Virus record (IMG/VR): IMGVR_UViG_2537561992_000024 | Span: 1 to 6,409 of that record | Length of the DNA stretch: 6,409 bases | From: a virus | Taxonomy: Duplodnaviria; Heunggongvirae; Uroviricota; Caudoviricetes | Direction: 5' to 3' (one strand) | In this document: positions 1 to 5,592 of the stretch, one piece after another | How the letters are laid out: each line of letters begins with the position of its first letter | How positions within the stretch are numbered: position 1 is the stretch's first letter | Notes under the pieces: generated by a model | Database searches by the model: none | What the model was told of the DNA's origin: nothing | Seen by the model: the letters and a program-made list of their open reading frames with translations, nothing else | Made by a program: the position numbers and the translations under genes

Positions 1-19
1 CCGAAATGGGAATGAATGA
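1..19 (+). CDS. 3' end of an upstream gene, truncated by the window edge (last codons ...R-N-G-N-E-stop, stop at 17-19); possibly a RusA-like resolvase C-terminus
   Basis: Open frame from the window edge to TGA at 17-19. The stop overlaps the next ATG (16-18) in an ATGA arrangement typical of translational coupling. Only 5 codons are visible, so identity is a guess from lambdoid gene order. Confidence 0.25.
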
Positions 20-156
20 TGTTTGAGTTTTATATGGCAGAACGTCTTCGCCACCGCTGGGGGCGTCTGCGCTTATATCGTTTCCCCGGTTCTGTTTTGA
101 CCGATTACCGAATACTGAAGAATTACGCCAAAACCCTGACAGGAGCAGGAGTATGA
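16..156 (+). CDS. Small 46-aa prophage ORF (MMFEFYMAERLRHRWGRLRLYRFPGSVLTDYRILKNYAKTLTGAGV), YlcG-like, immediately upstream of Q
   Basis: ATG at 16-18 (second ATG at 19-21), stop TGA at 154-156. Not in the ORF track because it is under 60 aa. Its position between a rusA-like gene end and Q matches the DLP12-type nin region. No strong SD is visible. Confidence 0.45.
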   Translation: MMFEFYMAERLRHRWGRLRLYRFPGSVLTDYRILKNYAKTLTGAGV

Positions 157-241: not shown

Positions 242-625
242 ATGCGTGATATTCAGATGGTTCTTGAGCGTTGGGGAGCGTGGGCGGCTAATAATCATGA
301 AGATGTGACCTGGTCGTCCATTGCCGCCGGTTTTAAGGGATTAATTACTTCAAAAGTAAAATCTCGCCCGCAATGTTGTGACGATGACGCGATGATCATT
401 TGCGGGTGCATGGCCCGTCTGAAAAAGAACAACAGCGATTTGCACGATTTATTAGTAGATTATTATGTAGTCGGTATGACATTCATGTCACTGGCAGGTA
501 AGCATTGCTGCTCTGATGGTTATATCGGGAAAAGGTTACAGAAGGCTGAGGGCATAATTGAAGGGATGTTAATGGCATTAGATATCCGGTTAGAGATGGA
601 TATCGTTGTTAATAACTCTAATTAA
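242..625 (+). CDS. Q: Late-gene antiterminator Q (82/21/DLP12-type Q family), 127 aa
   Basis: The track ORF 227..625 begins at TTG. The likely true start is ATG 242-244, preceded by GGAG at 231-234 (7-nt spacing), giving [22 protein letters not shown]... with the Cys-rich CCDDD...CGC and CC motifs. I recognise the sequence as the lambdoid Q (QuuD-like) antiterminator. Confidence 0.9.
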
Positions 626-658
626 TATGCCAATTGTTTACTAAAAATTATTAAGAAT

Positions 659-676
659 GGGGCGTTGAAACGCCCC
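659..676. promoter_or_regulatory. Perfect palindrome GGGGCG-TTGAAA-CGCCCC just downstream of Q; candidate protein-binding or promoter element (TTGAAA could act as a -35)
   Basis: Seen directly: a 6-bp GC stem flanking TTGAAA, followed by an A-rich stretch and -10-like hexamers (TAATAT 690-695, TATAGT 710-715). Function is not established. Confidence 0.3.
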
Positions 677-715
677 CAAAAATAAAGGGTAATATATAAC
701 AGAAGGTTTATATAG

Positions 716-764
716 TTAGAAGCAAGGTTGTGCTTCTAAAGGAAGTGGCTTGAGGGAGCCACTT
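716..764. other. Two consecutive stem-loops (716-739 with a 9-bp stem; 743-764 with an 8-bp stem) between the convergent Q and porin genes
   Basis: Inverted repeats TTAGAAGCA/TGCTTCTAA and AAGTGGCT/AGCCACTT are seen directly. Neither is followed by a U-tract on either strand, so they are not canonical terminators by themselves. Confidence 0.3.
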
Positions 765-804
765 ATATGTTGGGGAGGCAAAGCCTCCCACAACATATGT
801 TTTA
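765..804 (+). terminator. Strong intrinsic terminator (15-bp GC-rich stem with one bulge, AAA loop, then GTTTT); candidate late terminator (tR'-like), also lying just 3' of the porin gene
   Basis: ATATGTTGGGGAGGC-AAA-GCCTCCCACAACATAT followed by GTTTT at 799-803. The stem plus T-tract is canonical on the plus strand. On the minus strand the hairpin sits 10 nt after the porin stop but lacks a U-tract. Confidence 0.6.
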
Positions 805-813
805 GTAATCAAA

Positions 814-1881
814 TTAGAACTGGTAAACCATACCTACAGCAACGATATCATCGGTAGCAACGCCAGATGCTTTCGTGAAATCGCTCTTATCAATCAGGTT
901 GATTTTGTAGTCAACAAAAGTGGACATATTTTTGTTGAAGTAATAGGTTGCACCTACATCAATATATTCAACCAGGTCCTGATCACCCCAAGCACCCAAG
1001 TCTTTCCCTTTAGATTGCAGATAAGCAACGGACGGACGCAGACCGAAGTCGAACTGATATTGTGCAACTACTTCGAAGTTTTGTGCTTTGTTGGCAATAT
1101 GGTTTTTACCAAAAACAGTCATGTTTTGGGTTTCAGAATAGGTAGTAGCCAGATAGATGTTGTTCGCATCATATTTCAGACCAGCTGCCCATACTTCAGC
1201 ATTTTGACCAGATGCATTCAGGCTGTTGTTACCGTAGATAACCTGATTATTAGTGCGATCAGATTTAGCATAGGTTGCACCTACGCCGAAACCTTCATAC
1301 TCATAAGTAGTGGAGAAACCGAAACCATCACCATTAGCTTGAGTTACGTCAGTACGGTCATTTTTACCCTGATACTGAGCAGCAAAGTTCAGACCATCAA
1401 CCAGACCAAAGAAGTCATTGTTACGATAAGTTGCAACACCTGTGGTGCGACCAGTCATGAATACATCTGTTTGGGTCCAGGTATCGCCACCGAATTCTGG
1501 CAGAACGTCGGTCCATGCACCAATATCGTATGCTACACCGTAGTTACGGCCATAATCGATGGAGCCGTAGTCACCGAATTTCAGGCCAGCGAAGGCAAGA
1601 CGGGTTTTATCTTTGGAGGAACCTTGAGATTCAGCGCGGTTGCCTTTGAATTCATATTCCCACTGACCGAAACCAGTCAGTTGATCGTTGATTTGGGTTT
1701 CACCTTTGAAGCCAAGACGGGCATAAGTAGTATCACCATCATCTGCATCATTAGAGGAGAAGTAGTGCTTAGCATTAACTTTCCCGTACAGATCCAGCTT
1801 GTTACTGTCTTTATTATAAATTTCAGCTGCCTGAGCAGACATCGCCATCAGTACTGATGCAGCTACAGCAGAAATTGCCAC
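814..1881 (-). CDS. nmpC: General diffusion porin of the OmpC/OmpF/PhoE family, NmpC/Lc/OmpD-type lysogenic-conversion porin; 16-strand beta-barrel with C-terminal ...VAVGMVYQF
   Basis: The 355-aa ORF has a signal-peptide-like N-terminus ending AQA followed by [16 protein letters not shown], the conserved porin motifs ([35 protein letters not shown]), and a C-terminal Phe. The track ORF starts at GTG 1879-1881 with no SD. An SD-linked ATG at 1893-1895 is out of frame by one base (see findings). Confidence 0.9.
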
Positions 1882-2099
1882 TGTTAATTTTTCATCGTGA
1901 GCCCTTTTTTTGAACTATTATTAAAAAATGATGTCACTGCGCGATAAATATTCATCTAATCAATGTGATTATTTCAAGATGTAAGTTTTGGTTTCTCATT
2001 TGATTTGTGAAGTAGATCTCTATTTTTATCTGAACTTTTTCTATCGAATCCTATTCATGGCTCTTGGCTGAATAAAAATAAATCTATTAGCCAATTTAT

Positions 2100-2140
2100 A
2101 TTAATGGCTGTTATTTATAAGTGCCCTATAATTTGAAGGT
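2100..2140. promoter_or_regulatory. AT-rich block with a perfect TATAAT (2127-2132, plus strand) and a TTGAAC...TTATAAAT arrangement on the minus strand; candidate promoter(s) for the late/lysis transcript and/or the porin
   Basis: Hexamers are seen directly, but no good -35 lies 17 bp upstream of the plus-strand TATAAT. Strand and function are unresolved. Confidence 0.2.
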
Positions 2141-2321
2141 TCAATTTAAATCGGCTAAAAATAACGCTGGAAATTATTTGTTGGTTATTTGTTGAGATTT
2201 GTTTATGTATTTGTAGTGGTGTTTTCAATACTCGGTAGCATTCTCGCAAATATCATTTAGTGGTTTACGTACGTAAAAAATTGGTTATGCTGTTAAGAGT
2301 GGTTACTTCGTCACACAGCTT

Positions 2322-2350
2322 AAACCCGCCGTCGAGCGGGTTTTTCCATT
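2322..2350 (+). terminator. Intrinsic terminator about 130 bp upstream of the holin gene (stem AAACCCGC/GCGGGTTT, loop CGTCGA, then TTTTTCCATTTTTT)
   Basis: A GC-rich stem and U-tract are seen directly. Its placement just upstream of S resembles lambda tR'. Confidence 0.5.
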
Positions 2351-2482: not shown

Positions 2483-2698
2483 ATGAAATCCATGGATAAG
2501 TTAACAACGGGTGTCGCCTATGGCACCTCAGCAGGTAGTGCCGGTTACTGGTTTTTACAGCTGCTCGATAAAGTCACGCCCTCACAGTGGGCAGCAATAG
2601 GTGTGCTGGGTAGCCTGGTATTTGGCCTGCTGACGTACCTGACAAACCTTTATTTCAAGATTAAAGAAGATAAGCGCAAGGCTGCGAGAGGTGAATAA
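2483..2698 (+). CDS. S: Class II holin / pinholin (S21-type) with dual-start motif MKSM (antiholin from M1, holin from M4), 71 aa
   Basis: ATG at 2483 is preceded by GAGGTG at 2472-2477, with a second in-frame ATG at 2492. The product [71 protein letters not shown] has two TMDs and a charged C-terminus. The track ORF 2438..2698 starts at an upstream ATG with no SD. The stop overlaps the next gene's ATG. Confidence 0.9.
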
Positions 2699-3195
2699 TG
2701 CCTCCATCATTACGAAAAGCCGTTGCTGCTGCTATTGGTGGCGGAGCAATTGCTATAGCATCAGTGTTAATCACTGGCCCAAGTGGTAACGATGGTCTGG
2801 AAGGTGTCAGCTACATACCATACAAAGATATTGTTGGTGTATGGACTGTATGTCACGGGCATACAGGAAAAGACATCATGCTCGGTAAAACGTATACCAA
2901 AGCAGAATGCAAAGCACTCTTGAATAAAGACCTTGCCACTGTCGCCAGACAAATTAACCCGTACATCGAAGTCGATATACCGGAAACAACGCGCGGCGCT
3001 CTTTACTCATTCGTTTACAACGTGGGTGCTGGCAATTTCAGAACATCGACGCTTCTTCGCAAAATAAACCAGGGCGATATCAAAGGCGCATGTGATCAGC
3101 TACGTCGCTGGACATATGCTGGCGGTAAGCAATGGAAAGGTCTCATGACTCGTCGTGAGATTGAGCGTGAAATCTGTTTGTGGGGTCAGCAATGA
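2698..3195 (+). CDS. R: SAR endolysin (T4-lysozyme-like muramidase, R21-type) with an N-terminal signal-anchor-release domain, 165 aa
   Basis: The start overlaps the holin stop (TAATG). The Gly/Ala-rich weak [23 protein letters not shown] is followed by the catalytic triad positions E35, D44 and T50 in [18 protein letters not shown]. Confidence 0.92.
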
Positions 3196-3653
3196 ACAGA
3201 GTAACCGCGATTATCTCCGCTCTGGTTATCTGCATCATCGTCTGCCTGTCATGGGCTGTTAATCATTACCGTGATAACGCCATTACCTACAAAGCCCAGC
3301 GCGACAAAAATGCCAGAGAACTGAAGCTGGCGAACGCGGCAATTACTGACATGCAGATGCGTCAGCGTGATGTTGCTGCGCTCGATGCAAAACACACGAA
3401 GGAGTTAGCTGATGCGAAAGCTGAAAATGATGCTCTGCGTGATGATGTTGCCGCTGGTCGTCGTCGGTTGCACATCAAAGCAGTCTGCCAGTCAGTGCGT
3501 GAAGCCACCACCGCCTCCGGCGTGGATAATGCAGCCTCCCCCCGACTGGCAGACACCGCTGAACGGGATTATTTCACCCTCAGAGAGAGGCTGATCACTA
3601 TGCAAAAACAACTGGAAGGAACCCAGACGTATATTAATGAGCAGTGCAGATAG
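3192..3653 (+). CDS. Rz: Rz inner-membrane spanin (i-spanin), 153 aa
   Basis: ATG 3192-3194 overlaps the endolysin stop (ATGA). The product has an N-terminal TMD ([19 protein letters not shown]) and a coiled-coil periplasmic domain, and is lambda-Rz-like. The track ORF starts at an upstream GTG. Confidence 0.9.
3412..3594 (+). CDS. Rz1: Rz1 outer-membrane lipoprotein spanin (o-spanin), 60 aa, embedded in the +1 frame of Rz
   Basis: GGAG at 3401-3404 sits 7 nt before ATG 3412. The product has a lipobox (LVVVGC) and a proline-rich mature region ([16 protein letters not shown]), and lies entirely inside Rz in another frame. Confidence 0.88.
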
Positions 3654-3978: not shown

Positions 3979-4274
3979 CTTATTATCCTGCATTGTTAAA
4001 AACGGCAGAATCCTATGTGACAACAATTAAACGATAGTTAAATGGATTGATGAAAATTAAAACTATATAGGTGGATGCTCAGCCTATTGGAGGAGGGGGG
4101 CACTCAGAATCCTGTGGAATGAAATAAACCGCTCTATCTGTCCATTACCCTTTTAGCTGCGCTGTATCGTCGCCGTATTCCCGCATTAACCATGACCGTA
4201 GCCCGACGGGGAATTCCTTCTGCGTGAGTGTGCGGGAATAATCAAAAACGATGCACACCGGGTTTTACTGTGCT

Positions 4275-4277
4275 GAC
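4275..4277. repeat. Left copy of the 3-bp target-site duplication (GAC) flanking the IS element
   Basis: GAC lies immediately outside the left terminal inverted repeat, and an identical GAC lies immediately outside the right one (5593-5595). Confidence 0.7.
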
Positions 4278-4318
4278 TGAACCGCCCCGGGTTCCTGGAG
4301 AGTGTTTTATCTGTGAAC

Positions 4319-5206
4319 TCAGGCTGCCAGATCATCGTTTCCGATGGAAGCATAATAAGCTTTTTCTGCTTCTGCCGGAGGAGTATGGCCCAGCCTTCCC
4401 AGCAATCGTCGATTGTTATACCAGTCCACCCACGTTAGTGTGGCCAGTTCCACTTCTGCACGGTTTTTCCAGCTCTTACGGTGTATTACCTCCGCTTTGT
4501 AAAGACCATTGATGCTCTCAGCCATCGCGTTGTCATACGAGTCACCTGTACTCCCTGTTGATGCCAGCAATCCGGCTTCTTTTAGTCGCTCCGTATAGGC
4601 CAGTGACACATACTGAGAACCTTTATCACTGTGATGGACTGTGCCGGACGGCCGACGGGCCCACAACGCCTGCTCCAGTGCATCCAGCACGAATGTCGTT
4701 TCCATAGACGATGAGACTCGCCACCCCACGATACATCCGGCAAACACATCAATGATGAACGCCACACAGACGAAGCCCTGCCATGTGCTGACGTAAGTAA
4801 AATCAGCCACCCACAGCTGGTCAGGACGTTCTGCCACGAACTGACGGTTTACGCGGTCGCCTGCGGAAACGGCTTTCCGGCTGACGGTAGTACGGACCTT
4901 TTTACCCCGGAGAACACCGGCAAGTCCCATAACCGCCATGAGGCGCGCCACTGTACATCTGGCCACCCTGATACCTTCGCGTAACAACTGGCGCCAGACT
5001 TTACGCACACCGTACACCTGATGATTTTCATCGTATACGCGCTGTATCTCTCTCTTCAGCCAGTCATCGCGCTGAGCACGGGCACTGCGTTTATCAGGAT
5101 GATGTCGCTGTTGCTGACAGTGGTAATACGTTGACGGGGCAATATGCAGCTCACTGCATACCGGTCCGACCCCGTACTGCTCACGCAGCTTATCCAGCAG
5201 TGGCAT
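4319..5206 (-). CDS. IS3-family transposase OrfB (DDE/RNase-H-fold catalytic domain), 295 aa, apparently intact
   Basis: Continuous ORF carrying the catalytic residues in context: WVADFTYV (D), HHSDKGSQY (D) and DNAMAESINGLYKAE (E). I recognise it as IS629-type OrfB. Confidence 0.9.
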   Translation of the reverse strand: MPLLDKLREQYGVGPVCSELHIAPSTYYHCQQQRHHPDKRSARAQRDDWLKREIQRVYDENHQVYGVRKVWRQLLREGIRVARCTVARLMAVMGLAGVLRGKKVRTTVSRKAVSAGDRVNRQFVAERPDQLWVADFTYVSTWQGFVCVAFIIDVFAGCIVGWRVSSSMETTFVLDALEQALWARRPSGTVHHSDKGSQYVSLAYTERLKEAGLLASTGSTGDSYDNAMAESINGLYKAEVIHRKSWKNRAEVELATLTWVDWYNNRRLLGRLGHTPPAEAEKAYYASIGNDDLAA

Positions 5207-5538
5207 TATTTTTTCCAGAGGCGGTCGAACTCCGCCTTCGCAAAATAAGCGGAAGCCTGGCGAAGGATATCGTTACTGCGGCGCAGTTCACGATTTTCAC
5301 GTTCCAGCTCTTTTCAGACGCTGACGTTCAGCGCTGGTGAGCCCCACCATCACCGCCCCCCGGTATCCCCGCTCCATGCTGGCGAACCCAGACACGCAGG
5401 GTCTCCGGCGTACAGCCAATCTTTGGGGCAATGGAACAAATTGCCGCCCACTGTGAGTCATATTCATCCTGACTTTCCAGAACCATACGAATCGCCCGCT
5501 GACGGACTTACGGGGGAAAAACGAGTATTTTTAGTCAT
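5206..5538 (-). pseudogene. IS3-family OrfA (HTH plus leucine-zipper transposase N-terminal module), disrupted by multiple single-base insertions
   Basis: ATG at 5538..5536 with AAGAGG 7 nt upstream opens MTKNTRFSP, then stops after 24 codons. The OrfA motifs continue in other frames: [44 protein letters not shown] (+1), [10 protein letters not shown] (+2), and ELERENRELRRSNDILRQASAYFAKAEFDRLWKK-stop (back in frame 0). Confidence 0.75.
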
Positions 5539-5592
5539 CCTGTTTACCTCTTTCTCAGGGAGTTTAGTCTCCAGGATTTCCGGGGCGGTTCA

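Follow-up and report, generated by a model that had tools for sequence, protein, structure and literature searches.

Introduction

In phage lambda, late transcription begins at the promoter pR', a terminator (tR') stands before the lysis gene S, and the Q protein brings about read-through of this terminator; the terminated product, 6S RNA, is 194 nt long. A more compact arrangement is found in phage 21, whose Q protein, Q21, reportedly was the subject of structural work by Yin and by Shi in 2019. In phage 21 (OL657228), a sigma-70 promoter runs almost at once into a terminator. Lambda Q belongs to an unrelated protein family (PMC6606751). In both Stx prophages of strain Sakai, the primary start of PR' was mapped by dRNA-seq and the terminated 3' end by Term-seq 258 nt downstream; this 258-nt PR'-tR' transcript is StxS, and its 3' 74 nt form an Hfq-binding sRNA (PMC7547250). 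In the DLP12 prophage of E. coli K-12, RpoE and Q(DLP12) have been reported to control essD, with essDp as the promoter of the lysis cassette, according to the passages of PMC7918800 that cite this work (Rueggeberg et al. 2013 and 2015).

Here we analyzed the window, the whole 6,409-nt stretch of viral DNA presented above, which holds the late-control and lysis region of a lambdoid prophage of the DLP12/PA-2/434B type. The initial annotation had proposed a late promoter and terminator just upstream of S with the spacing of the lambda 6S module. We conclude, with a probability of about 0.8, that window 2264-2350 is a complete late-control cassette of a QuuD/Q933W-type lambdoid prophage, with a 1.6-kb antisense porin insert between the cassette and Q. 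The cassette is an ordinary homologue of the mapped Stx PR' with the geometry of phage 21, and its kind is already known.

Results

Organization of the window

The features of the window are collected in Table 1. Phages 434B and 21 have homologues of the lysis genes that are annotated with the same identities, and phage 21 has the same S21-type pinholin and SAR-endolysin genes downstream of its cassette. Over 1882-2483, the spacer matches 36 sequenced phages at 91.7-98.7% identity; PA-2 and the 434B hybrid, which carries the DLP12 region, are among them. It is nearly identical to DLP12 in E. coli K-12, with 2250-2350 fully identical.

Table 1 Coordinates of the features of the window (positions relative to A2298 where signed).
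Feature	Position	Strand	Basis or remark
ylcG-like short ORF	16-156		
Q antiterminator gene, QuuD/Q933W type, 127 aa	242-625	+	Pfam PF06530, E = 3.5e-53, full profile
Inserted cargo unit (porin gene, its 3' region, AT-rich promoter region)	626-2262	-	
Terminator hairpin, 3' region of porin gene	659-676	-	
Porin gene nmpC/lc, OmpC-family, frameshifted here	814-1903	-	Pfam Porin_1, E = 3e-153
AT-rich spacer, 580 bp			between porin gene and S
SigmaE-like GAACTA-N16-TCACT	1912-1938	+	overlaps upstream promoter
Upstream promoter, -10 TATTAT, start A1928	1916-1921 (-10)	+	K-12 Cappable-seq 576081
Perfect 14-bp palindrome TTTACGTACGTAAA, candidate Q-binding element, -34 to -21	2264-2277	+	covers -35 hexamer TTTACG
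-35 hexamer TTTACG	2264-2269	+	16-bp spacer to -10
-10 hexamer TATGCT of pR'	2286-2291	+	near-invariant -12T, -11A, -7T in relatives
Start-site and initially transcribed block TAAGAGTGGTTACTTCGTCACAC, candidate pause or Q-loading element	2294-2316	+	conserved in relatives
pR' transcription start, A	2298	+	homologous starts mapped in K-12 and Sakai prophages
tR' intrinsic terminator, +25 to +48, then CCATTTTTT	2322-2350	+	terminator scans and fold
S21-type pinholin S	2483-2698	+	Pfam PF04971 / PF00959 / PF03245 set covers lysis genes
SAR endolysin R	2698-3195	+	
Rz; Rz1	3192-3653; 3412-3594	+	
bor		-	between lysis genes and IS3-family element
DUF3950 gene			beyond IS3-family element

PhiR34_1 has the same Q as the window (100% identity), Stx phages of the Sp5/933W type have a Q of 78-81% identity (78% for Stx2 phage II), and the solved Q21 structure is a distant relative (6p18/6jnx; E = 7.6e-7). 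A Q gene of a recognized family thus lies upstream of the cassette on the same strand. Two promoter-like sites fall inside Q. The first (439-466, plus strand) lies next to a start that K-12 Cappable-seq lists at about window 469. The second (491-462, minus strand) matches at 10/12 positions and occupies the place that the antisense promoter paQ has in phage 21 and lambda.

A series of hairpins follows the porin stop codon (659-676 and 718-799), and since the T-rich tail of the one at 659-676 occurs only on the minus strand, it is assigned as the terminator of the porin gene. The block 626-813 with its hairpins is presumably the ipeX 3' untranslated region of nmpC/lc, reportedly described in Castillo-Keller 2006. 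At the other end of the gene (1884-1903, minus strand; T-run 1888-1892), a 1-nt deletion in an A6 run at codons 2-3 gives ATGAAAAATTAA. The six-A run is intact in all 43 other porin-type loci examined, and the deletion could represent a frameshifted pseudogene, a slippage variant or a sequencing error. A published deletion of the nmpC promoter was made as -199 to -1 of the ATG (PMC11677980).

Further downstream, bor and the DUF3950 gene flank a minus-strand IS3-family insertion sequence at approximately 4230-5590, whose orfA region appears split into short ORFs. The ALIL frameshift pseudoknot of this element (5135-5251, 120 bits) was the sole match in an Rfam scan of the whole window, which gave no match in 626-813 or 1900-2480.

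The late promoter and its start site

When aligned to Stx2 phage II, window 2263-2345 is 77% identical to the DNA that overlaps the Q stop codon in that phage. Nothing of window 626-2262 is shared, and homology to Q-adjacent phages resumes only at 2263. The common block comprises the 14-bp palindrome, an A-run, a TAnnnT hexamer (TATGCT in the window, TATCAT at the same place in Stx phages), TAAGAGTGGTTAC, and a hairpin with a T-run. PR' of phages Sp5, Sp15, and 933W is a direct homologue, at 77% identity over 2263-2345, with the same type of palindrome (TTTACGATCGTAAA) and with the -10 position, start context, and first hairpin shared with the window. In the Stx phages, the cassette overlaps the Q stop codon, unlike in the window.

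The start site was placed through two mapped relatives. Sp5 and Sp15 each have an A 7 nt past TATCAT, and counting from it to the final T of the StxS terminator gives exactly 258 nt in either prophage. A2298 is the homologous base of this Sakai PR' start. The Sakai check rests on that 258-nt spacing, as the paper used an older genome version with implied offsets of 142 and 135 nt, which are plausible differences between versions. In K-12, the equivalent of A2298 is U00096.3 577229, corresponding to U00096.2 576452, and the Cappable-seq table of Ettwiller et al. holds a plus-strand start at exactly this position (PMC4782308). Its score is low, at 1.7 compared with 90.2 for the start at window 1928; a 48-nt RNA may be under-sampled by the method, and weak promoter activity is equally possible. 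Among the listed K-12 plus-strand starts between nmpC and essD, the sole other is 576081, at window 1928.

We scanned viral contigs with a start-region motif, which gave 120 loci, and added previously collected loci for a total of 128. These contain 44 distinct upstream strings, with T at -12 in 42/44, A at -11 in 44/44, T at -7 in 43/44, and variable bases at -10 to -8. The 120-locus set was chosen by the start-region motif, so the conservation of that motif itself is not independent evidence. Invariant -12, -11, and -7 positions around variable ones form the pattern that would be expected of a working sigma-70 -10 element. TTTACG-16-TATGCT matches the consensus at 8/12 positions and was not called by our promoter scan. 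The cognate promoter of the terminator is TTTACG-16-TATGCT, with its start at A2298 and a predicted leader RNA of approximately 48 nt. A promoter with a mapped primary start in identical and homologous sequence lies upstream of the late genes, and the porin gene stands between Q and the late promoter, as the initial annotation had held, although the promoter is a different one from that which it named.

The TATAAT at 2127-2132

The promoter named there was a perfect TATAAT at 2127-2132, paired with the hairpin at 2322-2350. Both elements are found at these coordinates, and the stated weak point, a TATAAT with no good -35, is real: no usable -35 is present. The proposed spacing of about 200 nt is also arithmetically correct (approximately 207 nt from a start near 2139 to the end of the T-run at 2345) and is similar to the 194 nt of lambda. 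What does not hold is the lambda 6S-like meaning attached to it, as the mapped start leaves a leader of about 48 nt and the TATAAT is without a listed start in K-12. A lambda-type 6S module, with a discrete RNA of about 194 nt, would need a promoter about 190-200 nt upstream of the terminator, and among the listed K-12 starts none fits one. The leader of about 50 nt in phage 21, the structurally characterized relative, indicates that about 50 nt is the norm for this Q family and that lambda, with its 194 nt, is the wrong standard of comparison.

Could the TATAAT nevertheless be the late promoter, giving a 6S-like RNA of about 207 nt with the terminator as the target of Q? The hexamer is perfect, and it is kept in K-12 and in 41 of 45 porin-type relatives (TATGAT in three, TGTAAT in one). 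This retention matches that of the surrounding DNA, which is 92-98% identical. The window contains two copies of TATAAT compared with 4.2 +/- 2.1 expected from shuffled sequences, the GC content around this copy is 26-33%, and a consensus scan of 1880-2500 called no sigma-70-like promoter (2.6 expected in shuffles). The segment is part of the porin insert and is missing from phages that have the same Q family and lack the porin unit. A hypothetical 214-nt RNA from the TATAAT start folds no better than shuffled sequence (z = 0.10). Among the listed K-12 Cappable-seq plus-strand starts, none lies between the equivalents of window 1928 and 2298, so promoter activity in 2050-2200, on which the initial annotation had staked its proposal, is provisionally absent. 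We consider this model very improbable and already largely refuted. The TATAAT is a chance hexamer, at chance frequency, in the AT-rich promoter region of the porin insert.

A possible late promoter directly after Q

A second proposal puts the late promoter directly after Q, in 626-813, with late transcription running antisense through the porin gene to the terminator at 2322. This is the canonical position, as in lambda, and 637-665 bears a loose resemblance to the cassette (GTTTAC..TAAAAAT..TAAGAATGG). The resemblance is lost on alignment, and in other phages that carry an insert no comparable sequence follows Q; a promoter relic at 637-665 was rejected on these grounds. Among the listed K-12 starts, no plus-strand one falls in U00096.2 573563-573751, and the hairpin at 659-676 is the terminator of the porin gene, read on the minus strand. 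A promoter directly after Q is thus highly implausible.

The upstream promoter and essDp

The serious rival locates the lysis promoter upstream of the cassette, at the start at 1928 and/or at the sigmaE promoter essDp with its +1 at approximately 1945. Q would act there, 2264-2291 would be a minor relic, and the terminator would sit about 400 nt into the leader. This promoter has the strongest plus-strand start in the K-12 spacer (score 90 versus 1.7): the Cappable-seq start at U00096.2 576081, with a score of 90.2 (PMC4782308), maps to window 1928. It certainly fires, and it must send transcripts of about 400 nt into tR'. The RNA from 1928 to the terminator at 2322-2345 would be approximately 418 nt and antisense to the porin promoter region; between 1928 and 2345, the plus strand holds no ORF of at least 40 aa, and the short ones are 23-37 aa.

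The published control of essD by RpoE and Q(DLP12), in the form in which PMC7918800 cites it, also favors this rival. From the -121/+650 amplicon and the primers given in that source, we placed the essDp +1 at about window 1945, and the sigmaE-like site at 1912-1938 would then be the published essDp. essDp shares its locus and its downstream genes with the window cassette, from which it lies about 350 bp upstream, within the porin insert. The site reads GAACTA-N16-TCACT, compared with a GGAACTT-N16-TCAAA-like sequence, and the sole mapped start nearby, at 1928, falls within its spacer in a Cappable-seq sample that was not under sigmaE induction. That start fits the sigma-70 -10 TATTAT and not the +1 near 1945 of the published numbering, at least as far as the amplicon and primers in PMC7918800 define it; the two positions are 16-17 nt apart.

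Three further points weigh against Q action at this promoter. The porin insert contains it, and it has no counterpart in Q-adjacent relatives, including Stx phages whose Q is 78-81% identical; the element linked to the Q subfamily is at -34 to -21 of the 2298 start and not near 1928; and loading of known Q proteins is confined to a binding element next to a promoter-proximal pause (PMC6606751). Together, the placement in the insert, the absence from Q-adjacent relatives, and the distance from the Q-linked element lead us to favor Q action at 2298. We regard Q action at the upstream promoter as unlikely, while recognizing it as the one rival to be taken seriously.

The terminator tR'

The hairpin at 2322-2350 had been read as the late terminator preceding S, and this reading is borne out. 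An intrinsic terminator stands between the promoter and the first late gene. Its sequence is AAACCCGC-CGTCGA-GCGGGTTT, followed by TT-CC-ATTTTTT, with the hairpin itself at 2322-2343, eight pairs of which five are G-C and a predicted hairpin contribution of about -12 kcal/mol. It is the lone terminator-like site in 1880-2500 (one found, 0.4 expected), and the same scan gave no second terminator between tR' and S. The T-run ends at 2345, or +48 from A2298, which places the end of the terminator about 50 nt past the start, in the compact manner of phage 21.

This motif and its position are conserved among relatives. In 56 of 62 distinct downstream variants, which have at least five different stem sequences, the T-run of a terminator-like hairpin ends at +47 to +61, and the remaining six carry the same hairpin with one mismatch. 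In PA-2 and 16 other loci, GCTGG replaces GCGGG in the 3' arm (equivalent to 2336-2340), producing a mismatch in the stem. The recurrence of GCTGG across many independent contigs marks it as a real variant, one whose terminator is weaker. The 3'-end supplements of Adams 2021 have no entry at K-12 577273-577277 or for essD.

In Stx phages, transcription passes the first hairpin and continues to a second terminator at +258, yielding StxS (PMC7547250). The window shares only the first 48 nt or so of StxS, as homology ends at 2345; no StxS sequence follows, and the window has no StxS small RNA locus. The first hairpin after PR' in Stx phages (locus L004, 6980-7006; locus L008, 676-702) is a strong-looking terminator at +24 to +50 with 7 U. 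Set against the published 258-nt transcript, it is either leaky or gives a short product that was missed by detection. Since this homologous hairpin is evidently passed without Q, termination there appears to be incomplete. The window terminator has 5 U where the Stx hairpin has 7. Given this shorter U-run and the lack of a further terminator ahead of S, the lysis genes can be expected to show some basal expression.

The initially transcribed region

Besides the window, Stx2-II, PhiR40_1, and SfII all have the block TAAGAGTGGTTACTTCGTCACAC, and mEp390 has it with a single mismatch. A small RNA hairpin is predicted at +2 to +17. The sequence at +1 to +12 is AGTGGTTACTTC, in which the best -10-like candidate is TACTTC, without the final T; in Stx phages, it is TACATT. 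A clear -10-like pause element was not seen at +1 to +12 of the window. In phage 21, by comparison, a TAAGCT pause element lies at +2 to +8 downstream of a promoter with a consensus -35, TTGACA, where the window has TTTACG. A promoter-proximal pause would nonetheless be expected after pR'. We also considered TAAGAG (-4 to +2) as the pause element, by analogy with the phage 21 TAAGCT at +2, and rejected it: the start would then have to lie 5 nt further upstream, which contradicts both mapped starts as well as the invariant TAnnnT hexamer.

In the 1986 PA-2 GenBank record, the second annotated "CRP binding site" falls on window 2298-2318, within the conserved initially transcribed region. Its TCACA half-site reads CCACA in most relatives, and the likeness to a CRP site is probably due to chance.

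A candidate Q-binding palindrome

The palindrome that covers the -35 varies with the Q protein. Among 105 loci with nine Q clusters, the palindrome class agrees with the Q cluster in 105/105 cases without exception, and the center of the palindrome is constant at -27.5/-28 in all classes. Where Q is at least 77% identical to that of the window, the palindrome is TTTAC(G/A)..CGTAAA; more distant Q clusters have GCGTACGC, GCGGTCCGC, TGTTATAACA, TGGAATTCCA, or ATTCGTTACGAAT. The Q proteins of different clusters diverge at residues ~62-100, a predicted helix-turn-helix, and the N-terminal 60 residues are conserved. This concordance makes the palindrome a candidate site for Q binding, and co-inheritance on the same element could account for part of it.

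The window element differs from that of phage 21 in several respects. The QBE of phage 21 is a direct repeat (ATTGAGCA/AATGAGCA) at -27 to -12, and the window element is a palindrome further upstream, over the -35. Direct repeats of (A)TTGAGCA are absent between the -35 and -10 of the window, whose spacer TACGTAAAAAATTGGT contains no TGAGCA. Q21 is in the same Pfam family as the window Q, PF06530, and the two share about 30% identity over 80 residues, with the window Q 35 residues shorter. The phage 21 terminator spans +3 to +50 compared with +25 to +48 in the window, and its cassette abuts Q, whereas the window cassette is separated from Q by 1.67 kb of antisense cargo.

Cargo between Q and the late promoter

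Across 105 loci, the gap between the Q stop codon and the start site falls into two ranges, 9-44 nt and 630-2465 nt. This bimodal distribution indicates that the cassette has often been split from Q by inserted genes. The gap is a cargo hotspot in which genes are almost always antisense, for example at loci L019, L028, L056, L006, and L049 and at window 626-2262. The cargo includes the porin (35 loci), a Kiwa KwaB homologue, a PDC-S20 KAP-type NTPase, and a PDC-M68A HNH protein, as well as lipoproteins, an esterase-like protein, and many unknowns. The cassette itself was found in 2656/5426 complete E. coli genomes. In 8/8 records among the matches listed, no annotated feature lies under the cassette match.

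Discussion

The cassette at 2264-2350 follows the regulatory logic of lambda, with a leader of about 48 nt here compared with 194 nt there. In the mechanism we propose, RNA polymerase with sigma-70 would begin at A2298 from TTTACG-16-TATGCT. In the absence of Q, the hairpin and U-run (+25 to +48) would stop most transcripts, and the product would be an RNA of approximately 48 nt. Q supplied by the early operon would recognize the promoter via the palindrome TTTACGTACGTAAA (-34 to -21) and load onto the promoter-proximal complex, and polymerase would then read through the terminator into S, R, and Rz/Rz1. In this scheme, read-through of tR' would depend on Q.

We also put forward a broader reading, tentatively and at somewhat below even odds: short Q proteins of the QuuD/Q933W group may recognize their promoters through a subfamily-specific palindrome near -28 that overlaps the -35. 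Recognition of a palindrome would imply symmetric, two-fold docking of Q, unlike at the direct-repeat QBE of Q21. Q would then work entirely in trans on a cassette of about 85 bp that is complete in itself, and this could be why the gap between Q and the cassette became a general landing site for antisense cargo. On the same tentative reading, the essDp model would target the wrong promoter for Q.

The DLP12 lysis genes, which the cassette would control, are linked to biofilm and vesicle formation, and a homologous cassette controls the expression of Shiga toxin 2. As a caution, it was by coincidence that AT-rich acquired DNA held a perfect TATAAT here and that its distance from a terminator looked familiar. 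With the promoter, the start, and the likely Q site placed, experiments on Q specificity have a precise target, and the parts most worth following are the palindrome as a candidate Q site and the hotspot for cargo that separates Q from pR'. What has been published as the sigmaE promoter is a different site from the promoter linked to Q, and should the palindrome reading be true, the published sigmaE/essDp model of the DLP12 lysis genes aims at the wrong promoter for Q action. The arrangement also explains how a porin or defense gene can lie between Q and the late genes without upsetting late control.
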